Notes under the pieces: generated by a model
Told to the model about the DNA's origin: nothing
What the model saw: the letters and a program-made list of their open reading frames with translations, nothing else
Database searches by the model: none
Origin: a virus
Taxonomy: Duplodnaviria > Caudoviricetes
Length of the DNA stretch: 24,699 nt
Direction: 5' to 3' (one strand)
Virus record (IMG/VR): IMGVR_UViG_3300050147_000044
Location: 1 to 24,699 of that record
Shown: positions 1-22,712 of the stretch, piece by piece
How positions within the stretch are numbered: position 1 is the first letter of the stretch
How the letters are laid out: each line of letters starts with the position of its first letter
Translations under genes and position numbers: made by a program

Positions 1-27
1 GTCGCGCGCTGAACTCAGGGGTTAGGC
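1..27 (+). repeat. 3' half of an integron attC-like site (cut by the window edge)
   Basis: CTGAAC (L'-like), 6-bp spacer TCAGGG, then GTTAGGC (R' core GTTRRRY, 21-27); same geometry as the right arm of the 568-634 site. Confidence 0.7.
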
Positions 28-270
28 CCTCTCTGTCGCGGCCTTGGTGAAGTTCACCAGGGCCTCGATATACATGTCCGGGATGTCCTTCGGGTTGCAG
101 CCACCGTTCAGCCATTCGCCCACAGCGATGGCGCTCAGCTTGAGCTGGTGGGCGTCTTCCTTGGCCTTGGCTGCAGCGGCTCGCTCCTTCTTCAGGCGTT
201 CGCACGGCTACGCCCGGCCATCCCTCAACCACGGGTCATCGCCGCAGTCGTTCAGGCAGTCGCACTTCAC
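22..270 (-). pseudogene. Small Cys-containing hypothetical ORF (83 codons including the stop) interrupted by an in-frame TAG
   Basis: Manual translation MKCDCLNDCGDDPWLRDGRA*PCERLKKERAAAAKAKEDAHQLKLSAIAVGEWLNGGCNPKDIPDMYIEALVNFTKAATERA*. GTG start 1 nt after the upstream stop, with GGAG upstream. TAG at 208-210. Terminal TAA lies inside the attC core. Confidence 0.6.
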
Positions 271-271
271 C

Positions 272-469
272 TCAGGCTCCCACGGCCGTGGTCAGCAGTT
301 CGTGGAAGTAGGCCGCACGATCGGCAGACAGTTGGCTCACCTCGGCGGCGGCCACTTCGTCGGCGGTCATGAACTTTTGCGGGTCGGCGCGGTAGCCGTT
401 CTCCCATGCCTCGAAGGCCTTGGCCATCTGCTCGATGCTGACGTTGATGGTCTGCGTGGTATTGCTCAT
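272..469 (-). CDS. Hypothetical protein, 65 aa (MSNTTQTINV...), cassette-borne
   Basis: ATG at 469 follows GGAAAGG in the conserved leader repeat; part of ORF 272..607. Confidence 0.8.
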   Translation of the reverse strand: MSNTTQTINVSIEQMAKAFEAWENGYRADPQKFMTADEVAAAEVSQLSADRAAYFHELLTTAVGA

Positions 470-505
470 CTCGTACCTTTCCGCCAGGCTTCGCCCGGCT
501 CGTTG
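462..505. repeat. Leader repeat copy 1 (hairpin + RBS + ATGAGCAA on the minus strand)
   Basis: 41/44 identical to 964-1007; the three differences fall in the hairpin loop. Confidence 0.92.
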
Positions 506-567
506 CAAAATGCTCGGCCTGGCGGCCCAGCTTGGTGTTGTGCCCATGGTGGGCGGTGTGGTTGCTG

Positions 568-634
568 GCCTAACTCTCCGTTCAACTCGGACGTGCATGC
601 TTCGCACGCCCGCCGGTTAACTTTTGGGTTAGGC
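568..634 (+). repeat. Complete integron attC-like recombination site (67 bp)
   Basis: R'' GCCTAAC (568-574), 5-bp spacer, L'' GTTCAAC with an extra C, central stem CGTGC/GCACG, L' GTTAAC, 6-bp spacer, R' GTTAGGC (628-634). Confidence 0.85.
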
Positions 635-641
635 CCCCAAT

Positions 642-971
642 TCAGACCATGTCCACGTGCTGCATGTCGTGCTCGCTGAACTTGTTTGACACCTTGATGT
701 TTTCGTCAGTGCTCAGGGCTTGAGCGATCACGCTCATGGTGTCCAGCAGGTCGCGCTTGTCCCAGTGCCCTCGCTCATCCACCGCCTTGTTCTTCCAGCA
801 CAAGGTGAATCGGTCCTGGGGCACGGCGCGGTCCTTCGGGTGGTTGTAGCCAACACACACAAAGCTGGCTGGCGCTTTGGTCTTTGCGTCGGGCTCGTCT
901 GCGCATAGGTTGGCCACTGGTGTGCAATCTGTGCGGCAGCGCCAGCAGGTGTTCTCGGTTTGGTTGCTCAT
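642..971 (-). CDS. Hypothetical Cys-rich protein, 109 aa (MSNQTENTCWRC...)
   Basis: ATG at 971 in leader repeat copy 2; CxxC near the N-terminus; stop 7 nt from the attC core. Confidence 0.8.
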   Translation of the reverse strand: MSNQTENTCWRCRTDCTPVANLCADEPDAKTKAPASFVCVGYNHPKDRAVPQDRFTLCWKNKAVDERGHWDKRDLLDTMSVIAQALSTDENIKVSNKFSEHDMQHVDMV

Positions 972-1007
972 CTCGTACCTTTCCGCCAGGCGCTGCCCGG
1001 CTCGTTG
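964..1007. repeat. Leader repeat copy 2
   Basis: Direct repeat of 462-505. Confidence 0.92.
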
Positions 1008-1050
1008 AAAACGCCCATGCCTGCGGCATCGGCTTGTGGTTGAGGTAGCC

Positions 1051-1374
1051 TCAAAACGGAAGGTCCTTGTCGCTGGTGGCAAACCGTTCTTTGATGCGAG
1101 ACCGCATCATCGAAAGCAGCCACTCTCGGCGCTTGGCCTGGCTGTACTTGATCGCCTTGCTGGCCCATCGAATGCGGCTGGCCCAAAGCGCAGACAGCCA
1201 GCGCCCTTGCACTTGTTCGCGGGCACCGAGGTATACCCACTTGTCTTGTTTGATCGCCCAATGCGGACCGAGGATCACGGCTGGCTCACATGGATCAGGC
1301 CGGGCCTTTCTCAGCGGGTGTTGCTTTCTCCAGCGCAGGGCTCTTGGGGTGGGTGCAGCCTTTGCAATGGCCAT
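1051..1374 (-). CDS. Hypothetical basic, Trp-rich phage protein, 107 aa
   Basis: ATG 7 nt after the stop of the upstream gene; ends DLPF*. Confidence 0.7.
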   Translation of the reverse strand: MAIAKAAPTPRALRWRKQHPLRKARPDPCEPAVILGPHWAIKQDKWVYLGAREQVQGRWLSALWASRIRWASKAIKYSQAKRREWLLSMMRSRIKERFATSDKDLPF

Positions 1375-1381
1375 GCCTGCC

Positions 1382-1654
1382 TCACTCTTGCTCGCCAAGG
1401 CCCATTTCTCGGGCCTCGTTGATGGCATCACCCAGCGCGCAGGCCAGGCTGGTGTGTTGGCGCTCAATTTCGAGCTTGGTATTGCGGCGGTGACCGATGA
1501 GCGTGACTTTATAGCCCGTGGGCTTGGTGTCCTTGAAGTCGCTCATCGTCCACACGCGGATGAGGCCAAGCGTTTCGGCTTCGGTCCAGAGCTCGTCAAG
1601 CGTCAGCTGCCGCAGCGAGATGATAGGACTCAGGGGTTTGCTCAATGGGCTCAT
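1382..1654 (-). CDS. Hypothetical phage protein, 90 aa
   Basis: ORF in operon orientation, GAAGG upstream, globular-looking composition. Confidence 0.75.
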   Translation of the reverse strand: MSPLSKPLSPIISLRQLTLDELWTEAETLGLIRVWTMSDFKDTKPTGYKVTLIGHRRNTKLEIERQHTSLACALGDAINEAREMGLGEQE

Positions 1655-1814
1655 TGGTTGCCTTCATGAAAAGTTGAAGAGTGCCGCCTGGTCACATATG
1701 GCAGTGGATCGCTTGAACAAGGCCTCGATTAAGAGGAGTACTACACTGCGGCGCCGACCCGCAGCCCAGGCGGCTCTCATGACTGCGTCCGGCTGGGCGC
1801 ACTGATGAGGGCGC

Positions 1815-2069
1815 TTAGGCCTCGCTGGCTTGGCCGCGAGGTTTGTGCAGCCATGCGCTGCGCTGCTCAATGACCTCGGTTTGTGCAGGCTTGTGCACAC
1901 GGCATTCATGAGGCCGGTCGAAAGAGAAGAACTTGAAAAGCGGGCCTTGCTTGCACTGGCCGAAGCCGTGCTTGGCCATCTCGCGGGCTGAGCGCTGCGA
2001 CTTCTCGTTGGTGATGAGCGGGTGGCCGCGCAGCGTGAAGTGGTCGCAGGTAATGCATTGCTGGCTCAT
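1815..2069 (-). CDS. Hypothetical Cys/His protein, 84 aa (MSQQCITCDHF...), possibly Zn-binding
   Basis: ATGA overlap with the upstream gene; CxxCxHF...C...C pattern. Confidence 0.75.
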   Translation of the reverse strand: MSQQCITCDHFTLRGHPLITNEKSQRSAREMAKHGFGQCKQGPLFKFFSFDRPHECRVHKPAQTEVIEQRSAWLHKPRGQASEA

Positions 2070-2677
2070 GGTTTGAGCCTCTTGAAGCTGACAGCCCACA
2101 CCCAAGGGTTAAGAGCCCATGCGCCGGGGCCGTTGATCTGGTCCCACAGCTCGGCATACCACTGGCGTGGGTCAGGGCCTGCGGCCATGTTGGGGAATGG
2201 GCAGCCCTCGGCCATGGCGTCACCACGGCTGATGTCTTGCAAGCGCTCAACACGCACCTGGGTGATCTCCAGCGTGATGCGGCTGGCCCAGCGGGGCATG
2301 TGGATGCTGGGGCGCCATTTTTCTACCCAGGGCTCTCCGCCATCAGCTTGGTAGTGGATGATGGGCTTCGGGCTCTTGGTGTCATCACGCATCCACGCAT
2401 CCCATGCCCCCCAGCAATCAGGCTGGGGGGGGGCGTGGTTCTCTCTCACCCAAATCTGGTCGCCTGGCTCGCCGTAACGGCAAGGTACGGCAAAGTCGAG
2501 CAGCGAGTCGTCATCCATAGCCCAGTGATGTTTGCGAGGGTCAGGGTAGTGATAGGTGCAAAACTGAGTCGTGCCGGTCGGTGGCTGTACCTTCAGCACG
2601 CGCCTGGTCTGCGTCTTCGTGCCATCCAGGAGGGCGCGCACCATCGGTGCGCTGTAGAGCATCGGTCTTGTGATCAT
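2066..2677 (-). CDS. Conserved phage protein with ASCH/PUA-like domain, 203 aa
   Basis: Motifs MVRALLDGTKTQTRR, GDQIWVRE, WRPSIHMPRWASRITLEIT.VRVERLQDIS..DA.AEG and NPWVW; ATGA overlap with the methyltransferase stop. Confidence 0.85.
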   Translation of the reverse strand: MITRPMLYSAPMVRALLDGTKTQTRRVLKVQPPTGTTQFCTYHYPDPRKHHWAMDDDSLLDFAVPCRYGEPGDQIWVRENHAPPQPDCWGAWDAWMRDDTKSPKPIIHYQADGGEPWVEKWRPSIHMPRWASRITLEITQVRVERLQDISRGDAMAEGCPFPNMAAGPDPRQWYAELWDQINGPGAWALNPWVWAVSFKRLKP

Positions 2678-4242
2678 GCTGCTTGCTCCAGCGCTTGCCG
2701 CTCGGCGTAGTTGGCAGCCACAATCGCGCGGGCCAGCGGCGGGCATACGCTGTTGCCGCACATGCGAACCTGGGCATCCTTGGGCAGTGGCCTGCCGTCT
2801 GCGCCGCGGTCGATGATGTAGCTGTCAGGGAACCCTTGAGCCCGATAAAGTTCACGTGGCTGCAGCATGCGCATGCCGATGTCCGCGATCTCATAGTGCT
2901 GGCCAGCCACGGTCACCAGGCCAAAGCGAGGCTTGGTAGTGACCGTATGCATGGGGTCATCCAGTGGGGTGTCCTGATGGCTGCCGTAATAGGCGGTCAG
3001 GAAGGCGCTGACCGCCGCTGCATTGCCTCCGCTGGCCACGACGGTCTGCAAGGGCTTGCTGATCTGGCGGTTGCCGTGAGACCAGCGCTTGACACCTGAT
3101 GGCGACACATCACTGTGTGCCGAGTCCACCAGCAGTGGCGCCACCAGGCTGTGGTGGTCAACGCTGGTGACCGTGCCGATGGGGGCGCGCAGCTCGCTGC
3201 CGATCACGCCTGTGTAATGCTTCGCCAAAAAGGCTGTGACCAGGGCGTGCTTTGATGCCCCCGCCACCACGGTGCCCAGCGGCTTGTGCAGGCCCGGTGC
3301 GCGCGGCGCCTGACCCTCGCGCTCGCCATAGCCAGTCTGCACCAGCGTCGGGCTGCACAGCAGGTGTTCAGCCTTGCTGGTGATGGTCGACACCGGTTCA
3401 CGCATGCTGCGCACCTTGCCGCTGTCACCGTGCCCTGTGTGTCCTATGCGCACCACAAAAGGCTCGGCTGAGTTGACCACGTAGCGCATGACGCCATGCG
3501 CAATGCGGCGCAGCGTGGCTTCAGCCAGTGGCCGCTCGCGCTCAAAGATCGACGGGCACGGCAAGCTCCAGTCAATGCACTCGGCCGCGGTGCGCCAAGG
3601 CTTGAGGCTGGAGCCTCGGGCGGGCCTTTCGGCGTGGGTCGGCTCTGGCCACACGATGGGCATGCGATCGCATCGGGCCACTAGGAATAGCCGCTTGCGG
3701 ATGGTCGGGGCGCCGTAATCACAGGCGCGCATTTCGCGCCACTCGACTGTGTAGCCAAGGTTGCGCAGCCGCTGCACCCACTTGTGGAAGGTCTGGCCTT
3801 TGCGCATCGGGCAGGGTCTGCCAGACTTCAGCAGCGGCCCCCAGGTCTTGAACTCTTCGACGTTTTCCAAGCAGATCACACGCGGCCGCACCAGGCGAGC
3901 CCAGCGGATCACAACACCCGCAAGGCTGCGAATCTTCTTACTGACGGGTTTGCCCCCCTTGGCTTTGCTGAAGTGCTTGCAATCGGGCGATGCCCACAGC
4001 AGCCCCACAGGTCTGCCATCGGCCACCACGAGTGGATCGACCTCGAACACGTCGCTCACAAAGTGCAGGGTCTGCGGGTGGTTCGCTTGGTGCAATGCCA
4101 CCGCATCAGCCGCATGGTTGATGGCGATATCGACATGCCGGCCAATGGCCTGTTCTATGCCTGTGCTGGCGCCACCACCACCCGCGAACAGGTCAACAAC
4201 GAGCTCACTTGCCATCGGCAAGATGTATTGATTCGAGATCAT
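2674..4242 (-). CDS. Phage DNA (cytosine-5) methyltransferase, 522 aa
   Basis: Motif I DLFAGGGG, IV SPDCKHFS, VI ENV, VIII RKRLF, IX RMLQPRE, X GNSV. Confidence 0.96.
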   Translation of the reverse strand: MISNQYILPMASELVVDLFAGGGGASTGIEQAIGRHVDIAINHAADAVALHQANHPQTLHFVSDVFEVDPLVVADGRPVGLLWASPDCKHFSKAKGGKPVSKKIRSLAGVVIRWARLVRPRVICLENVEEFKTWGPLLKSGRPCPMRKGQTFHKWVQRLRNLGYTVEWREMRACDYGAPTIRKRLFLVARCDRMPIVWPEPTHAERPARGSSLKPWRTAAECIDWSLPCPSIFERERPLAEATLRRIAHGVMRYVVNSAEPFVVRIGHTGHGDSGKVRSMREPVSTITSKAEHLLCSPTLVQTGYGEREGQAPRAPGLHKPLGTVVAGASKHALVTAFLAKHYTGVIGSELRAPIGTVTSVDHHSLVAPLLVDSAHSDVSPSGVKRWSHGNRQISKPLQTVVASGGNAAAVSAFLTAYYGSHQDTPLDDPMHTVTTKPRFGLVTVAGQHYEIADIGMRMLQPRELYRAQGFPDSYIIDRGADGRPLPKDAQVRMCGNSVCPPLARAIVAANYAERQALEQAA

Positions 4243-4261
4243 GCGTGCCTCAATAAAAGGT

Positions 4262-4357
4262 CAGCGTGCCCGGCGCAACCCGGGCTATTTGTGCAGCTGC
4301 TACTAACGACAATGAAGGACAAGTTGCCGCACATCACCCGGGCCACCCGGGACGCTG
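4262..4357. other. Long imperfect inverted repeat / candidate structured RNA upstream of the methyltransferase
   Basis: Nested pairings on the minus strand: CAGCGT/ACGCTG, CCCGG/CCGGG, CCCGGG/CCCGGG, GTGCGGC/GCTGCAC, around a ~28-nt loop. Confidence 0.55.
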
Positions 4358-4366
4358 GTAAACGGG

Positions 4367-4618
4367 TCAGGCTGCGCCTGGTGGGAGCTTGCTGGTCACG
4401 CGCAGGTGCCCTTTGCCCTGCAGCAAGCTGCGGTAGCTGTTGATGGCAACGGCCTCAGCCTCGCGGGCCACGTTCTGCCCTACAGCAATGACCTGGCCGT
4501 CATCGGTGACGATGGCCAGCCGCGCGGGCTTGCCGTCTACCGTCACAGTGAGGCCTTCGTGGCAGACCGCTGAGATGACGACGCCGCTGATGGCGCCAGT
4601 GGGTTGGGTGCCGATCAT
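4367..4618 (-). CDS. Hypothetical phage protein, 83 aa (MIGTQPTG...)
   Basis: ATGA overlap at 4615-4618; GGAG upstream. Confidence 0.8.
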   Translation of the reverse strand: MIGTQPTGAISGVVISAVCHEGLTVTVDGKPARLAIVTDDGQVIAVGQNVAREAEAVAINSYRSLLQGKGHLRVTSKLPPGAA

Positions 4619-4932
4619 GGCTGCTCCATGCGGATGACGATGTGGCCAGCAACGCTGGTGCCGAGCTGGTCGAGCCGTGGGTTGCGCCACAGGCCATCAG
4701 AGAAGATCAGGTCGAGGTGCTGCAGCACGGTGTCTGCCGCTGCGGCCTTGTAGCCGCGGGGCACAGGCGCGGCATCGCAGTGCAGCACGATGTTTAAAAA
4801 GCCCGCTGGCTCACGGCTGAGCCATTGGCCCTCAGAGGGCAGGTCGCGCACCAGGTCAACGATCTGGCCGACCATGCGGGCATACCAAAGCAAGGGGTCA
4901 CTGCAGCCAGTAATGGCAAGGCGTTCGCTCAT
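4615..4932 (-). CDS. Hypothetical phage protein, 105 aa
   Basis: Coupled by ATGA overlaps at both ends. Confidence 0.8.
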   Translation of the reverse strand: MSERLAITGCSDPLLWYARMVGQIVDLVRDLPSEGQWLSREPAGFLNIVLHCDAAPVPRGYKAAAADTVLQHLDLIFSDGLWRNPRLDQLGTSVAGHIVIRMEQP

Positions 4933-5423
4933 GATGGGTCTCCGTCTGCGCGTTCGCGCCTACCGTCGGGCCAGATGCGCCAGCCCAGTTGCACACGGGG
5001 CAGGTCGCGGCAGTCCAGCGCGCCATCGCGGTAGACCATGGGCAGGCGGTCTGCAGGGCTCGCCAGCCGCACGATGCTGCGCGTGCGCAAGCTGGGGTCT
5101 TGCTCGATGGGCTTGAGCTGGCGCTCTGAGGCAACAAGGGGCGCAGGGGGGGGCGTGTGCGGTATGGCTGTGCAGCGCTGGTGGTCTTTGAGCCAGTAGC
5201 TGCGGCCAGACTCGGTCATACACCAGTCAAGCGTCGAGGGGCTCTGCGTGGCCAGGTCGGCGCGCTTGAGGCCCACCAGTGCGGCGCGCAGCTCGCCAGG
5301 CGTGAAGCGCATGGATGCCCGCAGGCTGCGCTGCACGATGCATGGGAACAGCAGGGGCCCGTCGCTGAACAGCAGCGCAGCGCAGGCGTAGCGGGCTGTG
5401 TCGGGCAGGTAGACGTAGCTCAT
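4929..5423 (-). CDS. Hypothetical phage protein, 164 aa; N-terminus possibly winged-helix-like
   Basis: ATGA overlaps at both ends; ELRAALVGLKRADLA...WCMTESG resembles a wHTH end (inference). Confidence 0.72.
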   Translation of the reverse strand: MSYVYLPDTARYACAALLFSDGPLLFPCIVQRSLRASMRFTPGELRAALVGLKRADLATQSPSTLDWCMTESGRSYWLKDHQRCTAIPHTPPPAPLVASERQLKPIEQDPSLRTRSIVRLASPADRLPMVYRDGALDCRDLPRVQLGWRIWPDGRRERADGDPS

Positions 5424-7513
5424 GCTATTACCTCTTCCGACGTTTGCCCTGGCAGCACTTCAACGTCTTGCTTGAGCACTGTGCTGCGGTTGGGTTTGCC
5501 GGTGCGCCAGCTCTCAACTTCGACCACGAGCGAGCCATCCCCGTTGACTTCAACAACGGTGGCAATGCGTTTGGCCTTCTTCACCTTAACCCTCTGGCCC
5601 ACCCAGTGGGCCAGCTGGCTGACATCCTTACTCTGCGCCCCTTGGGGCGCCTGGCTTTCGTCTTCCTGGGGCGACTTGTCGCCCCCTTGGCTGGCGGCGC
5701 CTATAACTTCGCCTGCCGGCGACGGAGTCTGGTGGGGTAGATCCGACTCCGATAGGTCGACGCTGGCCATGTCTTTGTTGCCGTCATACAGCTCGCGCCA
5801 CGCTACAGACTGCGCCTCGCACAGGCCTGGCAGCACCTGCTGGCTCACGTCATAGCTGTCATCGTCTGGCAGGTCCTGGATATCACCCAGCGAGATCAGC
5901 TCTGCGCACATCATGTGCAGCTGGTCGGTGTTCATCTCCATCGTGGCGTCAAACAGGTTGTCGCGCAGGCTCATGAGGCTGTTGATCTCCCAGCCCCACA
6001 GTTCGGCCATCAACGTCACCAGTTCGGCATCGTCCAGGTAGGTGGTGCCCAAGTCGATCGCCACCATGCGCAGGGCGTGCGTGTCGTCATCGATATAGCC
6101 CTGGTCCATGTAGTCCGCATGCAGCGCTTTGACCGCCTTGATGCGCCAGGCGCGGGCGTGCTGCACGCGCAGCTGGTGCACGGCGTCGTCATGCTGCTCA
6201 TCGCCGTCACCGTCGTTGGTTGGGCCATGCATGAACTGCTTGTTGCCAGTGGGGAAGGGCCAAGCTACATCAGCCTCCGTTTCAGGGCTGCGCGCAGCTG
6301 GCGTGCTGGGCTCTATGTAGCTGGTGTCGGGCTTCGTGGCCACGCTGGTGCCAAGGTCTGCCTTGGGCTTTTTGGCCTTGGGCTTGTCCTTGTCAGGGTC
6401 ATGCACCAGCAGGTCGTTGTCCCGCAGGGCTTTAATCGCCTTGGTGATCTCGACCACCTCGCGCAGCGTCTGCTCTTTGGGGTGCTCAAACAGTGCCGAT
6501 GGCTTGAGCAGCTTACCCAGCAGGCGCTGCAGGCTCTTGTCTGTGCCGGTCAGGGCTTGCATGCCCCGATCCATGTAAACGTAGTCGCCATTGAGCTCAT
6601 CGCTGGCCGTGCCGAATCTGAGCATCACGCGTGCGCCATCGCCCTCAAACACCACCAAGCCAGCTTCGCGCGCCTTGCTTTTGATGCGCTCGTTGAAGGC
6701 CAGCAGCTTGGAGGTGAAGCAATCGCCATCGGTGCAAACGTTGTCTGGCTCATCGTCAAACAAGCTGGGCTCGTTGCCGCTCATGCGTGAGCATGTCAGG
6801 CATGAGCCTGCACCCTCCAGCAGCGTGGCGTCGGTGATGGGGAACGTGGCCTTGTCAATGCGCAGGTGGAACTCTCGGCGCAGCAGCTCGCCCGCCGCTT
6901 TCACATTGATCTCGTCACCCTCTGCCGTGGCCTTGCGCAACTTGGCCAGGGCCTTGGGCTGCAGCTTGGCTGGCAGGCGCGCCAGTTTCTGCGCAATCGT
7001 GGCGTTGAACTCTTCGGCGTAGAAGGCTTCACGCAGGTCAGGCACCAGTGCCAGCAGCTTGAGCCTGTTGTAGACGTGGGTGCGGCTCTTGCCGATCTTG
7101 GCTGCCAGGTCATCGGCCGACTGGTCGGTCGCATCGGCGTGGCCGTAGGCACGCAGCAAGGCCTCGAAGCCTTCGGCCTCTTCAAGCGGGTGCAGGTCTT
7201 CACGCTGCGCGTTCTCGATCACCGCGATCTCAAGGGCCTCGGTGTCAGTCATCTCGCGCACGATCGACGGGACCTGGGGCAGCTCGGCCATGCAGCTGGC
7301 GCGCCAGCGGCGCTCACCCGCCACGATCTCAAAGTGCTCCACCTCGCCCACCATGGTGGGCCGTGTCAGGATCGGCTGCAGCACGCCATGCCGCTTGATG
7401 TTGTCGGCCAGCTCTTTCATGGCCTGCTCTTTGAATCGGCGGCGTGGGTTGAGGTGCGAGCGCAGCACAAGCTGGATGTCCAGCAGCTTGGGTAAGTCAA
7501 AAAGCGGGGTCAC
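5420..7513 (-). CDS. ParB/RepB/Spo0J family protein with long C-terminal extension, 697 aa
   Basis: NPRRRF, GVLQPI, IVAGERRWRA (box II), IENAQREDL.PLEEA and HTH LAAKIGKSRTHVYNRLKL. Confidence 0.93.
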   Translation of the reverse strand: MTPLFDLPKLLDIQLVLRSHLNPRRRFKEQAMKELADNIKRHGVLQPILTRPTMVGEVEHFEIVAGERRWRASCMAELPQVPSIVREMTDTEALEIAVIENAQREDLHPLEEAEGFEALLRAYGHADATDQSADDLAAKIGKSRTHVYNRLKLLALVPDLREAFYAEEFNATIAQKLARLPAKLQPKALAKLRKATAEGDEINVKAAGELLRREFHLRIDKATFPITDATLLEGAGSCLTCSRMSGNEPSLFDDEPDNVCTDGDCFTSKLLAFNERIKSKAREAGLVVFEGDGARVMLRFGTASDELNGDYVYMDRGMQALTGTDKSLQRLLGKLLKPSALFEHPKEQTLREVVEITKAIKALRDNDLLVHDPDKDKPKAKKPKADLGTSVATKPDTSYIEPSTPAARSPETEADVAWPFPTGNKQFMHGPTNDGDGDEQHDDAVHQLRVQHARAWRIKAVKALHADYMDQGYIDDDTHALRMVAIDLGTTYLDDAELVTLMAELWGWEINSLMSLRDNLFDATMEMNTDQLHMMCAELISLGDIQDLPDDDSYDVSQQVLPGLCEAQSVAWRELYDGNKDMASVDLSESDLPHQTPSPAGEVIGAASQGGDKSPQEDESQAPQGAQSKDVSQLAHWVGQRVKVKKAKRIATVVEVNGDGSLVVEVESWRTGKPNRSTVLKQDVEVLPGQTSEEVIA

Positions 7514-7824
7514 AGCTTGAACTCCTGTCGGTTGCGCGCCTGGTCTTCAACGAGCCGTTTCAGGCCCTCCAGATCGCCGGGGGTTGAGGCCATGGCGTTG
7601 CCCTCGGGGTCGTAGGCCATGTAGATGAAGCGCAGGCCCGCACCGATTTGAGCGGGCTGCAGCTGAACGAGTCGGATGTCATAGCCCGTGGCGCCAAGCT
7701 CCAGGCGGTTGCCTGGCATGGCAGCCCACTGGCTGTCGGGTCGAGCGCTTCTGCGTGCCCGTGAGCGTGCGCGCGCCACCAGTTGCTTGACGCGCACGAT
7801 CACGATCCAGGGGTATCGCCGCAT
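7510..7824 (-). CDS. Hypothetical phage protein, 104 aa
   Basis: GAAAGG upstream; GTGA overlap with the ParB start. Confidence 0.75.
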   Translation of the reverse strand: MRRYPWIVIVRVKQLVARARSRARRSARPDSQWAAMPGNRLELGATGYDIRLVQLQPAQIGAGLRFIYMAYDPEGNAMASTPGDLEGLKRLVEDQARNRQEFKL

Positions 7825-7835
7825 GGGGGCCTTTC

Positions 7836-8135
7836 TCAGTCGTCGTCGCGCTCGCCAGCGGCGAGGCGCTTGTGATCCATGGCAGGGGCCAGGGTGGGGG
7901 TGGGTGCCTGGTATGCGCGTGCCGGTGCGGGCGTGCGGCGGGCCTGCGTGCGCTGCCCGAGCGCAGCGGCTACGCTGGCGCGCCGTGCATGCCGGTAGGC
8001 TTCGAGCATCACAAAGCGGTGGCAGATCGGGTCTGCCATGGCTGCCTCATAGCCCTCGGGCCAGGTGCTGCGCTTGCGGCGCTCGTAAGCGGCGCGGCTT
8101 TGCTCTTCGCTGATCACGACTTTCCAGCAACCCAT
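7836..8135 (-). CDS. Hypothetical phage protein, 99 aa (MGCWKVV...DHKRLAAGERDDD)
   Basis: AAGGAG RBS before the ATG at 8135. Confidence 0.78.
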   Translation of the reverse strand: MGCWKVVISEEQSRAAYERRKRSTWPEGYEAAMADPICHRFVMLEAYRHARRASVAAALGQRTQARRTPAPARAYQAPTPTLAPAMDHKRLAAGERDDD

Positions 8136-8146
8136 GGCAATCTCCT

Positions 8147-8368
8147 TCAGGCAGTGGTGACGCCAGGCATCAACAAGTGCTTGGCCTCGGGGCCGCAAGC
8201 GCCGCCGAGATCGCGTAAGCTGCGCACGTCTCGGCTGGGTTCGCGGGCGAAATCGGGGCAGCTGCACAGCTGCCCATGTGTCGTGCAGCCGTGTGCACAC
8301 AGCTCGCAAGCGCGCAGACGCAATGGCACCAAGTGAATGCGCATCAAGCGCTCAATGGCGGGGCTCAT
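8147..8368 (-). CDS. Hypothetical Cys-rich protein, 73 aa
   Basis: GGAG RBS; CELCAHGC...CSC...CGPEA. Confidence 0.7.
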   Translation of the reverse strand: MSPAIERLMRIHLVPLRLRACELCAHGCTTHGQLCSCPDFAREPSRDVRSLRDLGGACGPEAKHLLMPGVTTA

Positions 8369-8549
8369 GGCGTGCGTTCTCCAAGGCGTAAAGCTCGGCG
8401 CGCAAGGCTGCAAGCTCGGCGCGCAACACAGCCAGCTGCACGGGCCCTTCAGCCAGGCATTCGCGCAGCATTTCTTCGTCCAGCTGGGCCCAGCGAATGC
8501 GTAGCCGCAGCAGCAGTGCGCGGCAACGGTGAGTGAGTTTGCTCAGCAT
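8352..8549 (-). CDS. Hypothetical helical protein, 65 aa
   Basis: GGGAG RBS; overlaps both neighbours in the operon. Confidence 0.65.
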   Translation of the reverse strand: MLSKLTHRCRALLLRLRIRWAQLDEEMLRECLAEGPVQLAVLRAELAALRAELYALENARHEPRH

Positions 8550-8809
8550 GGCCGCATCACTCCCATGTCGCCCTGCTGAGTCAGGCCCAGCTGCAGCCCG
8601 CCTCGTTCAGCCAGTTCGGTGTTCAAGGCCATGAACATGTCGGCCCGGTGCTCTTCACACGCCAGGTCTGACTCCAGCCGCTCAATACGCTGCATGGCGT
8701 CGTCAAGCTGCAGGCGCAAGGCCAGCGTGTGCTCGCGCAAGTGCTCAAGCTCCCACGTGTCCAGCTTGCGCTGCAGTGCGTTGAGTTCGCGCAGGCTCAT
8801 GGTGCTCAT
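8543..8809 (-). CDS. Hypothetical coiled-coil protein, 88 aa
   Basis: GGAGG RBS; heptad-like Leu spacing. Confidence 0.78.
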   Translation of the reverse strand: MSTMSLRELNALQRKLDTWELEHLREHTLALRLQLDDAMQRIERLESDLACEEHRADMFMALNTELAERGGLQLGLTQQGDMGVMRPC

Positions 8810-8958
8810 GACGGCCTCCGCTCAATGATCAGCACGACCAGGCGCGCATTGGGGTAGAGCAGGTCTACCTGGTGCTCCGCATCGCTGCGGCTGCTGAAGC
8901 GGGCGGGCAGGGCAATGCGCTCGCCTGCGCTGGTGATGACGGTGGCGCGGCACTGCAT
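8806..8958 (-). CDS. Small hypothetical protein, 50 aa (MQCRATVITSAGERIALP...), absent from the ORF track
   Basis: Manual translation; GGAGGTGA RBS; ATGA overlap at 8806-8809; fills the operon gap. Confidence 0.72.
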   Translation of the reverse strand: MQCRATVITSAGERIALPARFSSRSDAEHQVDLLYPNARLVVLIIERRPS

Positions 8959-8961
8959 GGC

Positions 8962-9336
8962 TCACCTCCAGTGCTGCACGGCCAGCCAGATGCTGCCCAC
9001 CAGGGCGCTGACTGCGATGCCGACCGTGCCGCCAAACAGCAAGCTGGCACCCCAGCCGGGTGCGATGTAGACGTCTTCGTCGGGTGCTGCGCCGCTGCCG
9101 TGGGGGGGCTCATCTACGGGCATGGTGTCGGCAAAGCCGTCATCAGCCGTGAACTCGATTGCCTTGATCGTGGACGACTCATGCAGTGCGCGCTCGGCGC
9201 GGCGCACTGCCAGCAGTGGCTCCACGCGTATGGCCTGCGGCACGAAGCCGCGGCCCTGGGTGAGTTGGGTGTCGATCAGGTAGCGGCCTGGCTCGCTTTG
9301 CCAGGCCACCTCGGCTTTGTGGATGATGTCTTGCAT
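8962..9336 (-). CDS. Hypothetical protein with C-terminal transmembrane helix, 124 aa
   Basis: GAGGTG RBS; hydrophobic LLFGGTVGIAVSALVGSIWLAV. Confidence 0.72.
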   Translation of the reverse strand: MQDIIHKAEVAWQSEPGRYLIDTQLTQGRGFVPQAIRVEPLLAVRRAERALHESSTIKAIEFTADDGFADTMPVDEPPHGSGAAPDEDVYIAPGWGASLLFGGTVGIAVSALVGSIWLAVQHWR

Positions 9337-9337
9337 C

Positions 9338-9526
9338 TCACACCTCGCCGATTCGTTCGACCAGGGCCTGCAAGCCATCTTCGGGGATTGCGGCGCGCCG
9401 GTCTGCGCCCATGACGGCGATCAGACTGTTGTGCAGATCCACCTCTGCGACAATCGCCCGCAGTTGCAGGGCAATGATTCCACGTGCAATGCCGTGGGTA
9501 ATGTTGACTTGATCTTCGTTGCTCAT
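9338..9526 (-). CDS. Hypothetical protein, 62 aa, first gene of the leftward early operon
   Basis: GAAGG RBS; directly downstream of the PL-like promoter. Confidence 0.7.
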   Translation of the reverse strand: MSNEDQVNITHGIARGIIALQLRAIVAEVDLHNSLIAVMGADRRAAIPEDGLQALVERIGEV

Positions 9527-9550: not shown

Positions 9551-9607
9551 GTAGTAGCGCGATGAATAGTAGCACTACGCAAAGATAGGCGGCAATAGTG
9601 GCGCAGC
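9551..9607 (-). promoter_or_regulatory. PL-like promoter with three 13-bp operator-like sites (OL)
   Basis: Minus strand TTGCCG-N18-TACTAT with TG extension. Sites GTAGTAGCGCGAT (9551), ATAGTAGCACTAC (9566), ATAGTGGCGCAGC (9595). Confidence 0.72.
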
Positions 9608-9659: not shown

Positions 9660-10094
9660 TCAGTTTGACAAGCGAGCCACCTGGTCAGATATCCACCGCT
9701 TCGCTTCGACGCGATCGGTGAACGCAGCCCTGAGCACGCCGGCCCTCAGCTGTAGGTGCGTGTAGCGGCTGGCGTCTGCCAGCAGCCGCTCGGGCACAAC
9801 GATGGCCGTTGGTATGTCCGCTGGCAGGCCCGACCGCACAACATCTGTGTAGATCGTGAGCAGATCCATCGCGGTCATGCTCGGGTCGCTCCGATCGTAA
9901 AACGCAATGGCGGCGAGCACGCTCGGTCGGTCTTGCGGTGGGATACCGTAAAACTTTTGGAGCCCGGCTATCACGCTCGCACTTGATGTTCTCCCACTGA
10001 ACTCGAAGTACGCGACCGACGCTTTGATGCTCAGCCGCACGTGTGTGCCTGGACTGCTCTCCTCAATGACTACCATTACTACCTCCTGAGCCAC
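9660..10094 (-). CDS. Moron-like hypothetical protein, possibly STAS/SEC14 (SpoIIAA-like) fold, up to 144 aa
   Basis: Flanked by terminators. PTAIVVP...AFTDRVEAKRWI resembles the STAS/SEC14 C-terminus. Start may be the ATG near 10076, which has CAGGAGGT upstream. Confidence 0.65.
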   Translation of the reverse strand: MAQEVVMVVIEESSPGTHVRLSIKASVAYFEFSGRTSSASVIAGLQKFYGIPPQDRPSVLAAIAFYDRSDPSMTAMDLLTIYTDVVRSGLPADIPTAIVVPERLLADASRYTHLQLRAGVLRAAFTDRVEAKRWISDQVARLSN

Positions 10095-10301: not shown

Positions 10302-10883
10302 TCACTTTTCAGCTGCTTTGGCCGCTGCAATGGTTGAAATGCAGCGCACGAACACACGCAGCCTGGCGGGGTTTTTTGCTGACAGGGTGTCGAATTCAAG
10401 GGCCAGCTCCAGCGCCTCTTTGGACAGCTTGGTACGGTCAACGGCACTCAGCAACGCCTCACGGCGAGCGCGTGCATCTTCAATGTCGGCGTCGGGGGCC
10501 GTGTCCACATCAATGCCTGCAGCAGCGAGCGAGTAGGCGATGGGGCCAGGCGATTCTGCCCGCGGCTGGGCCCGGTGTTCGCCATCGGCTGTTGGGGAGG
10601 TGTGCACACCTGCGCGCTTGGCCTGGGCTGCCCAGTAGGGCGAAAAGTCGGCAATGTCACAACCCAGTGCTCGGGCAAACGAAATGGCGGTTTCCAGGCT
10701 GAGCTTATTGATGCCGTTCAAGTAGTGGCTGAGGTTGCCTGCGCTCTTGAACCCATGCGCTGCCGCGAAGGTCTTCCGGTCGAAACCCTCAGTTGCCTCG
10801 CGTCCGCTGTAAATGCTCTTCAGGCGCTTGGAGTCGCCTTCCTTGTCATACCTCATCTCATCGATGGTATCGACTGGCGCCAT
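10302..10883 (-). CDS. cI: cI-like phage repressor (XRE HTH), about 193 aa, no S24 peptidase domain apparent
   Basis: NLSHYLNGINKLSLETAISFARALGCDIADFSP resembles the lambda cI N-domain; divergent from cro; start is 10883 or about 10856. Confidence 0.85.
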   Translation of the reverse strand: MAPVDTIDEMRYDKEGDSKRLKSIYSGREATEGFDRKTFAAAHGFKSAGNLSHYLNGINKLSLETAISFARALGCDIADFSPYWAAQAKRAGVHTSPTADGEHRAQPRAESPGPIAYSLAAAGIDVDTAPDADIEDARARREALLSAVDRTKLSKEALELALEFDTLSAKNPARLRVFVRCISTIAAAKAAEK

Positions 10884-10967
10884 AGCAACACTACTGTTTT
10901 GTATCGCGCTACCCCCTTCAGAACGTGTAGTATCGCTATTGTCTTTAGGTGGTAGTGACGCTACACT
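10882..10967. promoter_or_regulatory. OR-like operator cluster and PR-like promoter
   Basis: Sites ATAGCAACACTAC (10882), ATCGCGCTACCCC (10903, degenerate), GTAGTATCGCTAT (10927), GTAGTGACGCTAC (10952). Plus strand TTGTCT (10939)-N17-TACACT (10962). Confidence 0.78.
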
Positions 10968-10974
10968 ATTTTTC

Positions 10975-11298
10975 ATGACTGATCCTCTGTCGACATTCAA
11001 ACGCGCTCGTGACCTGCTTGGTGGCACCGGTAAAACGGCATCTGCTCTAGGCGTAACCGGCGACGCAGTGCGCAAGGCCGCAAGCGGAAGCATGGCGATC
11101 CCGACCGAATGGGCGGTCTTCTTCGACTTTACCACTAGCGGCACTATTGCTGCGGAAGAGCTGGTTCCCCGGGTGCGATGGGCTCGTATGCCCGATGCGA
11201 CCTGGCCGGCTCCGGCAGGTCGTCCGGTGGTCTTGCACGACGAGCTTGTATGCAGGTCGCGTGAGGCCTTGGGCGTTTTGCTTGCTGCGGTGGCGTGA
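10975..11298 (+). CDS. cro: Cro/YdaS-like HTH regulator, 107 aa
   Basis: ARDLLGGTGKTASALGVTGDAVRK...TSGTIAAEELVPRVRW; divergent from cI. Confidence 0.82.
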   Translation: MTDPLSTFKRARDLLGGTGKTASALGVTGDAVRKAASGSMAIPTEWAVFFDFTTSGTIAAEELVPRVRWARMPDATWPAPAGRPVVLHDELVCRSREALGVLLAAVA

Positions 11299-11570: not shown

Positions 11571-11657
11571 TTTGAATCCTTGGCTCTTGCTTCGTTCGAT
11601 AGCGTCTCTATTACTGTGCCACGGCTGCTTTCGTCTTGGGCGGGTTTGGGTGACGCA

Positions 11658-21953: not shown

Positions 21954-22712
21954 ATGTTGAACTTCGGTACGGGCAAGCTCATTGCGGTGCCCACCAATCT
22001 GGCCGATGGCAGCGTCATTGCCACGCCTACCCCCGTCCGCCTGGGCACCATGCAAGACATCAGCGTGGACATGTCGCTCGAAATGAAGACAGTCTACGGT
22101 GGCAAGCGTTACCCCCTTGGCGCTGGGCAGGGCAAGGGCAAGATTGCGATCAAGGCAAAGTATGCCGACATTGACGGCAAGATCCTGGGCTCGCTGTTCT
22201 ACGGTAAGGCCTCGGTGGCGGGCATCAAGGGTGCGGTGTTTGACAACCTTCAGACCGTGCCTGCATCAGGTGCTTACACGGTCACCGTGGCGCCACCCAA
22301 TAGCGGCACTTTTGCGGAAGACCTCGGGGTGCTCTACTCTGGCCTGGGCGTGCAACTCAAGCGCACTGACAGCGCTACGCCCAATGCGGGTGAGTACAGC
22401 GTTGCGGCGGGTGTGTACACCTTCAACGCTGCCGACAAGAGCAAGGCCATGCTGTTCAGCTATGAGTACACCGCCAGCAGTGCGGCGGGCGAGATTTTCA
22501 CCATCACGAACGAGGTCATGGGCTACACGCCCTCGTTCAAGTTGCTGCTGCAAAACCAGTACGACGGCAAGACGATGGTGCTCAAGCTGCACCGCTGCGT
22601 CAGCAACAAGCTCAACATCCCCCTCAAGAACGACGACTACGCCTTGTACGACTTTGAGGCCGAAGCCTTCGCCAACGCAGCTGACGAAGTCGGCTACATC
22701 TGCCTGTTCTGA
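21954..22712 (+). CDS. Major tail tube protein, 252 aa
   Basis: GAGAGGA RBS; position; FGTG...LGTMQDISVD...LKNDDY...FEAEAF. Confidence 0.8.
   Translation: MLNFGTGKLIAVPTNLADGSVIATPTPVRLGTMQDISVDMSLEMKTVYGGKRYPLGAGQGKGKIAIKAKYADIDGKILGSLFYGKASVAGIKGAVFDNLQTVPASGAYTVTVAPPNSGTFAEDLGVLYSGLGVQLKRTDSATPNAGEYSVAAGVYTFNAADKSKAMLFSYEYTASSAAGEIFTITNEVMGYTPSFKLLLQNQYDGKTMVLKLHRCVSNKLNIPLKNDDYALYDFEAEAFANAADEVGYICLF

Follow-up and report, generated by a model that had tools for sequence, protein, structure and literature searches.

The left edge of the phage contig analysed here (24,699 bases, a single contig and the entire genome on record; hereafter the window) is a small, partly decayed example of a mirrored phage array: its attC sites have standard anatomy, and its genes lie on the strand opposite to the usual one. 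Integrons are regarded as bacterial devices whose strand selectivity serves gene placement under Pc. In the mirrored phage integron the recombination parts are standard, and what is new is the mirroring of its cassettes to suit transcription by the phage. Sequence comparison shows the polarity, the strand of the ORFs, the order of the platform in the relatives, the cassette junctions and the grouping of the integrases. We judge it probable that the explanation holds as a whole, namely a phage-resident integron with mirrored cassettes, cutting of the bottom strand at R', and reading from a leftward early promoter. The window would be the promoter-side end of an attC array, likely part of such an integron in a temperate phage.

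An attC array with antisense genes at the contig edge

The contig edge falls within the array, which lies at the far end of a leftward gene block and comprises the following features.

1..27, +, attC 3' arm (L' 8-14, 6-nt spacer, R' GTTAGGC 21-27), belonging to an off-contig cassette
22..628, + (top-strand terms), cassette A, whole: core TTAGGC, two antisense ORFs, leader and own attC
22..270, -, ORF A2, 82 codons, stop TAA (24-22) within R', in-frame TAG at codon 21 (210-208)
272..469, -, ORF A1, 65 aa
470..567, -, conserved leader of about 100 nt from attC to ATG: two hairpins, then a GGAAAGG ribosome-binding-like motif
568..634, +, complete attC (R'' 568-574, L'' 580-587 with an extra C, L' 615-621, R' 628-634); + is the canonical top strand
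629 to about 1043, decayed cassette B, its attC lost here and present in the related locus L002
642..971, -, ORF B, 109 aa, Cys-rich, stop 7 nt from R'
972..1043, -, 5'-truncated leader copy of cassette B, the preceding attC missing

The site at 568-634 has the form by which attC is recognized, an imperfect palindrome R''-L''...L'-R' with 5- and 6-nt spacers and an extrahelical base. Its 5' half reads R'' GCCTAAC, a 5-nt spacer and an 8-nt L'' (GTTCAACT) that includes the extra C; its 3' half reads L' GGTTAAC, a 6-nt spacer and R' GTTAGGC. The same script returned an identical layout for the top strand of attC-aadA1 from plasmid NR1. The minus strand of the site folds at -15.8 kcal/mol (z -3.6), a value equalled by 0/200 shuffles, and the site scores 56.8 with a detector that had 0 hits when run on 1.08 Mb of shuffled loci. 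At the half site 1-27 the crossover is predicted between 21 and 22, and similarity between the window and locus L164 ends at its R' core. The window thus contains one whole attC and one cut attC.

Both sites read as canonical top strand on +, while the conserved ORFs are on -. The canonical layout, with the ORF on the attC top strand and its end near R'', is not what we find; these ORFs are on the bottom strand and end at R'. This opposition had been pointed out in a first-pass annotation, together with the stop of ORF A2 inside the R' core and that of ORF B 7 nt from R', and all of it is borne out. Its count of three minus-strand ORFs also stands, but they make up one whole cassette with two ORFs plus one decayed cassette, with a single complete attC, and the ORF that does stop in R' carries an in-frame TAG. 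The L164 homolog of ORF A2 has CAG where the window has TAG, and ORF A2 is likely a pseudogene; its part after the stop has no PHROGs or Pfam match.

The three minus-strand ORFs have coding scores of +18.7 to +22.4, versus -21.8 for the plus-strand ORF 44-679, to which 0/1715 candidates were homologous at E<=1e-3. ORF A1 found homologs in 20/20 candidates, and it also forms the C-terminal part of phage proteins of 138-142 aa; the longer A1-containing protein of L164 has a crAss001_48-like N-terminal domain. The window form of ORF A1 may have arisen through internal deletion behind the same leader. Longer phage proteins that end in ORF A1 lie at L164:7767-8183, L190:6033-6461 and L165:6247-7353. 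ORF B has relatives in 4 viral loci. PHROGs, NCBIfam, Pfam and ESM Atlas gave no family for ORF A1 or ORF B, and window positions 440-1060 matched none of 50,697 GenBank phages.

From the R' core onward, cassette B and a cassette of L002 are 99% identical. The window copy breaks off in the leader, and the attC that precedes the leader in L002 is absent from it. The intact attC at 568-634 is itself 98.6% identical to an L002 site that serves a different ORF. Neither intI nor attI is present in the window, which ends inside the array, and a gene near it (1382-1654) used as a query found no relatives for extending the contig. Because ORF A2 is broken and cassette B is without attC, the window copy is possibly inactive.

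Orientation of cassette genes in related arrays

When the shared leader was used as a query, three loci were retrieved, of which L001 and L003 carry a TIGR02249 integron integrase (426 bits; cut-off 265). In both, IntI is followed by an excisionase-family HTH gene and then a phage integrase, and eight attC sites lie on the other side of IntI. With an IntI of this type as query we collected 72 viral loci, along with genomic loci that are the best 80 of at least 489 confirmed; both sets were seeded with a single phage IntI, which favours its own clade. ORF strand was called with an amino-acid score trained on 11 window genes.

The viral unique inter-attC intervals (n=123) divide into 71 reversed, 20 canonical and 32 uncalled, and the genomic ones (n=127, from the best 80 of at least 489 loci) into 25 reversed, 87 canonical and 15 uncalled. 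The first-pass annotation had proposed a consistently reversed design and suggested tabulating ORF orientation against attC polarity across arrays. The tabulation agrees with it, since 71/91 called viral cassettes are antisense and 87/112 called genomic cassettes are canonical. If a score margin of at least 10 is required, 62 viral intervals are reversed and 15 canonical, against 12 and 73 genomic ones (same best 80 of at least 489 loci). Counted per locus, reversed versus canonical is 25 versus 2 for viral and 6 versus 28 for genomic loci (best 80 of at least 489), with a Fisher p of 2.5e-9, the loci being partly dependent. Eleven of the 20 canonical viral intervals sit in L054, whose IntI groups with bacterial ones, which leaves 9 elsewhere. 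Among the genomic intervals called reversed, many hold short frames with low scores; four belong to L085 and L144, two loci that adjoin phage recombinases. Polarity of attC relative to intI is canonical at 199/205 viral and 182/184 genomic sites (best 80 of at least 489 loci).

The positions of the stops mirror those of bacterial cassettes: the stop of the reversed ORF lies no more than 15 nt from attC in 49/68 cases, at a median of 2 nt, as against 5 nt in bacteria. A symmetric test of stop position gave 50 reversed, 26 canonical, 26 both and 64 neither among viral intervals (n=166), and 17, 87, 8 and 72, respectively, among genomic ones (n=184; best 80 of at least 489 loci). This test is weaker than the score-based calls but agrees with them.

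The surroundings and cargo of the reversed arrays are of phage type. Phage families are matched by 22/68 reversed cassette ORFs, five of which are DNA methyltransferases; other matches include a Mom-like protein, a PAPS reductase and a DHH phosphoesterase. Beyond the arrays, 96/103 called genes are co-directional with the cassette ORFs. A phage integrase or serine recombinase adjoins intI in 25/40 viral loci (57/102 candidate proteins scanned), and other viral neighbours of intI are terminase, portal, primase, ParB and HNH genes. Loci L057, L059, L067, L069, L020, L032, L037 and L160 have intI beside terminase, portal, primase or ParB, and not beside an attachment integrase; the divergent IntIs of L057, L059 and L069 are not members of the main phage group.

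Read along the mRNA strand, the relatives have early genes first, then the oldest cassettes, the newest cassette, attI and intI, usually followed by excisionase and attachment integrase. intI and attC keep their normal divergent geometry, and only the ORFs are mirrored, with their starts beside R'' and their stops in the R' core or close to it.

A phage group of integron integrases with a putative attI

The IntI tree comprises 136 rows, with loci having short or interrupted IntI matches and duplicates excluded; its root is not firm, and the choice of seed favours the phage group. It contains a 53-row group (SH 99) of 47 viral and 6 genomic rows, which recurs with a support of 98 in an IQ-TREE analysis of a 59-row subset. 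All 18/18 viral rows from reversed arrays fall in the group, and 0/28 bacterial rows from canonical arrays do (genomic loci being the best 80 of at least 489). Of its six genomic members, five stand beside a phage-type integrase, and the short L126 is without such a match. Genomic IntIs of the group that adjoin a phage recombinase are those of L122, L085, L080, L082 and L144; L122 is from Aromatoleum toluolicum T, a cultured strain. Five patterns for the IntI catalytic motifs are all kept in 51/53 IntIs of the group.

Just upstream of intI, many loci have in common a putative attI, GTGTTA...GTCGAATTNNN^GTTRGGC, whose GTTRGGC core is on the same strand as the R' of attC. A scan for this motif gave 20 matches: 9 beside intI, 4 with attC but without a whole intI, and 7 with neither. 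L002 and L183, both of the leader family of the window, are among the 4. The first cassette after the putative attI is reversed in 32, canonical in 2 and uncalled in 2 of 36 phage-clade arrays, as compared with 20 canonical and 6 reversed in 26 bacterial arrays (best 80 of at least 489 genomic loci). The orientation bias, and the many reversed arrays beside a phage-clade integron integrase and putative attI, support the earlier suggestion of a phage-adapted class, as opposed to stray captured cassettes. A LexA-like box was found at 1/53 phage-clade and 4/28 bacterial loci (best 80 of at least 489), a scarcity that is weakly informative because so few of the bacterial loci have the box. Among phage records only 9 have an IntI-like match; in one of them, Rctr41k, it sits in a co-directional gene block, and the detector gave no attC at that locus.

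The strand that recombines

Bottom-strand recombination cleaves at R' and top-strand recombination at R'', according to passages of PMC5027507. If R' is used, a cassette retains the attC at its top-strand 3' end, which is here the 5' end of the gene. We therefore compared near-identical cassettes with differing flanks. In 5/6 comparisons the attC on the 5' side of the ORF is kept (94-100%), while the stop-side attC of the same five differs (52-86%); the sixth shares its neighbour (100 versus 96) and is uninformative. Six more diverged pairs (68-90% body identity) gave a mixed picture in which linkage to the own attC is unclear. The match between the window and L002 begins at the R' core. Loci L037 and L039, whose IntIs are identical, have 5 whole cassettes in common, of 8 and 10, in the same order, the rest having been gained or lost. 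By genome comparison, then, these are cassettes in the accepted sense, units that move with their own attC and with a crossover at G^TT of R'.

Since the cassettes break at R' and travel with the 5'-side attC, the bottom strand, here the coding strand, likely recombines; the chemistry would be canonical. The first-pass annotation had allowed that + might be the recombinogenic strand, and the junctions instead fit crossover at R', that is, the minus strand. Sections of PMC8946536 indicate that attC folding is favoured when the bottom strand is on the lagging-strand template, and a replication origin to the right would place it there. L002 has two exact copies of one cassette, at 4343-4666 and 6961-7284, one of them proximal to attI and the other further inside the array; in the latter the interior of attC is inverted between the R boxes. 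A renewed insertion at attI together with a flip could explain this duplicate, as could an artefact of assembly.

The phage early region and the leader

PHROGs matches on the + strand (primase, terminase, head protease/capsid, tape measure) and on the - strand (repressor, ParB-like gene, DNA methyltransferase) mark the window as a tailed phage. The region to the right of the array has the following features.

1051..9526, -, leftward early gene block running into the array, with DNA methyltransferase (2674-4242), ParB-like gene (5420-7513) and small genes
9551..9595, -, predicted PL: operator palindromes of 13 bp (9551-9563 and 9566-9578) over a TTGCCG-18-TACTAT promoter found by eye
10302..10883, -, cI-like HTH repressor gene
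10882..11298, +, OR-like region: three further operator palindromes (10882-10964) and a Cro-like gene (10975-11298)

This is a lambdoid early-left arrangement at the sequence level: a cI/cro switch, operators common to OR and OL, and leftward genes that reach the array. The cI-like (10883-10302) and Cro-like genes face each other, and the 13-bp palindrome occurs in 3 copies between them and in 2 copies at 9551-9578; any chance figure for it is inflated because the pattern was drawn from the window sequence itself. The promoter of the predicted PL (9595-9566) is a visual reading below the scanner threshold, and a sigma-70 scan made no call there. A terminator-like hairpin just upstream of it (9642-9624) closes the region above. 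Repressor-controlled expression from PL would fit this anatomy, with operators at both control regions and co-directional genes; no promoter-like site was called in window 1-1100, and from the predicted PL to the array it is 8.6 kb. Read-through into the array we infer. Further operator-like palindromes with one mismatch are at 11135-11147, 11599-11611 and 22300-22312, two of them inside the cro/cII region. A gene without known family (9660-10094, -), with its own terminator-like hairpin, lies between the repressor and the predicted PL, a position typical of lysogen-expressed accessory genes.

The leader of about 100 nt is conserved before unrelated ORFs, which mostly start Met-Ser; besides the window copies (470-567 and 972-1043), it occurs in L001, L002, L164, L165, L183 and L186-L194. 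Across 15 copies its two hairpins hold in 98.9% of cells, 10/13 pairs have changed on both sides, and 0/500 shuffles reach the observed statistic; this covariation is only suggestive, the copies being related to one another and also the source of the structure. A retained G-U pair favours the minus strand of the leader as the folding strand. In Rfam the window had no match that reached the gathering level, and its positions 1-1400 had only four weak ones (E 0.19-7.8), so attC and leader are not known RNA families. A rule that the leader always abuts attC (9/10, six of these being training sequences) was rejected on metagenome matches. Upstream of the 12 distinct strict-pattern leaders there is a whole attC in 6 cases, a half site in 3 and no site in 3, a series that would fit a step-by-step loss of attC from the cassette nearest the promoter. 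Parts of 10.1101/2022.09.11.507474 raise attC deletion as a route to cassette fixation.

Alternative explanations

The most serious competitor, though an unlikely one, is a relic array, in which the sites derive from a phage integron that no longer recombines and the hairpins and leader act in RNA or as homology patches. It would account for a window without intI, with a stop in ORF A2 and with the attC of cassette B deleted, for the strict-pattern leaders that have a half site or no attC upstream, and for the 4/13 attI-bearing loci with attC or intI from which a whole intI is missing. However, the attC at 568-634 is intact and nearly identical to the L002 site for a different ORF, the junctions with relatives lie at the R' core, and IntI can act in trans on single sites, as passages of Qi et al. 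2023 (PMC9892861) describe. We regard it as very improbable that stray bacterial cassettes were captured, like the published phage CALINs, and lie antisense by chance or with promoters of their own. A promoter could hide in the leader, yet the scan of 1-1100 gave no call. Reversed cassettes do occur singly in bacterial arrays, such as a toxin-antitoxin-like one in L154. Phages also take up bacterial integron segments (sections of PMC9892861). Against this, the orientation bias is systematic, 22/68 reversed ORFs match phage families with 5 DNA methyltransferases among them, and the published TJE1 and M16-3 arrays are canonical on re-test; the cassette counts and the IntI tree largely refute capture of this kind.

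A slightly smaller chance still attaches to reversed strand choice, by which the phage IntI would recombine the structural top strand, so that the cassettes are normal relative to the strand used. Strand choice varies among sites and can flip when extrahelical bases are moved, in the experiments covered by portions of PMC5027507, and phage IntIs are a distinct group. What tells against it is that the attC at the cassettes' 5' side is kept and breaks fall at R', that the attI GTTRGGC core is on the attC R' strand, and that viral sites match bacterial ones in extra base, spacer composition and length. Finally, the + ORF 44-679, with 211 codons on the top strand, could have been the real cassette gene, which would make the orientation normal and which the first-pass annotation had named as the result that would overturn its view. 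This is scarcely credible, as the ORF has no homologs, has a negative coding score and passes straight through attC.

A probable phage-resident integron with mirrored cassettes

In the phage-resident integron that we favour, IntI would act on the folded bottom strand with the usual cut at R', and the cassette genes would be transcribed from the leftward early promoter, not from Pc. Insertion of new cassettes would take place at attI, which is the end most distant from PL. intI would be co-transcribed with the cassettes on the leftward early transcript, so that shuffling would follow derepression. The promoter-nearest cassette would lose its attC and become a fixed early gene, as cassette B here. 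The window phage would use an off-contig intI or one supplied in trans; L002, the closest cassette-sharing relative, has an attI-like site and no intI. More tentatively, and at a little less than an even chance, temperate phages of Beta- and Gammaproteobacteria may have their own integron lineage (IntI clade, attI and mirror-image cassette pool) that would act like a conveyor belt where the early operon ends. Upon derepression, cassettes would be taken in at attI, be tried as early genes and be fixed by loss of attC at the far end, and new ones would arise by ORF swaps behind a constant module of attC plus structured leader.

It is useful to contrast these arrays with canonical integrons, both class 1 and sedentary chromosomal. 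The relatives share with them a TIGR02249 IntI about 58% identical to IntI1, an identical attC anatomy, an intI divergent from the array top strand, and crossover at R' (here by comparison). They differ in that the phage ORFs are bottom-strand and co-directional with intI, the cargo is phage-type, and the position first after attI is farthest from the likely promoter; a Pc on the attI side would read the phage cassette ORFs antisense. The rule that cassettes face Pc is restated in the portions of PMC11551772 and PMC8876359 at hand. Parts of Qi et al. 2023 (PMC9892861) describe bacterial integrons captured by phages, 17 phage CALINs, and bottom-strand recombination by IntI1. Those arrays likewise have attC in phages, often with methyltransferase cassettes and with or without IntI, but the complete integrons among them are captured bacterial ones (Vibrio, class 1, Shewanella). 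Its TJE1 and M16-3 arrays were canonical when re-tested with our own detector. The main text of that paper reports neither a reversal of ORF versus attC nor a phage IntI clade, and its supplementary arrays could include reversed ones. Its CALIN criterion is at least 2 attC within 3 kb and no intI, to be read here on a contig that ends inside an array.

Inverted-integrase integrons, found in Spirochaetota and others, have intI on the strand that bears attC, as described in parts of PMC13323075 and 10.1101/2022.02.06.479319. In them, as in the phage arrays, intI is transcribed in the direction of the cassette ORFs; however, they flip intI, whereas the phage arrays flip the ORFs and keep intI on the strand opposite to attC. 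The phage arrays do not belong to that type, as attC is upstream of and opposite intI at 199/205 viral sites. With intI and attC opposite and the ORFs flipped, a standard pipeline would likely file them as regular integrons. Cassettes inserted at attG sites can owe their expression to resident promoters, and deletion of attC can fix them, according to sections of 10.1101/2022.09.11.507474. They resemble cassette B in the attC deletion and the possible resident promoter; the phage system differs in having a dedicated attI and a whole array of built-in reversed layout. Our literature search, whose coverage excluded most subscription journals, found no paper on reversed cassettes in phages.

If this explanation is true, cassette layout is set by promoter context while the chemistry is unchanged. 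With the mirrored layout, phages can likely exchange accessory genes where the early block ends. Temperate phages would gain a site-specific route for acquiring and shuffling accessory early genes, such as methyltransferases, and the phage integron would be a candidate source of temperate phage mosaicism. Swaps behind the attC-leader module would be one source of that mosaicism and a direct handle on how cassettes are made. The shared module before unrelated ORFs and the series of whole, half and missing attC open the birth and the fixation of cassettes to test. That bacterial arrays contain phage-like reversed cassettes suggests exchange between the two pools. Single short ones, with their stop in the R' core, are at L141:8522-8738 and L150:691-919, the L141 array being otherwise canonical; they hint at exchange between phage and host pools. 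Long attC sites are found at L003:3192-3309, L176:588-714 and L181:5353-5454, and in these the downstream ORF or its ribosome-binding site seems to start in the loop.
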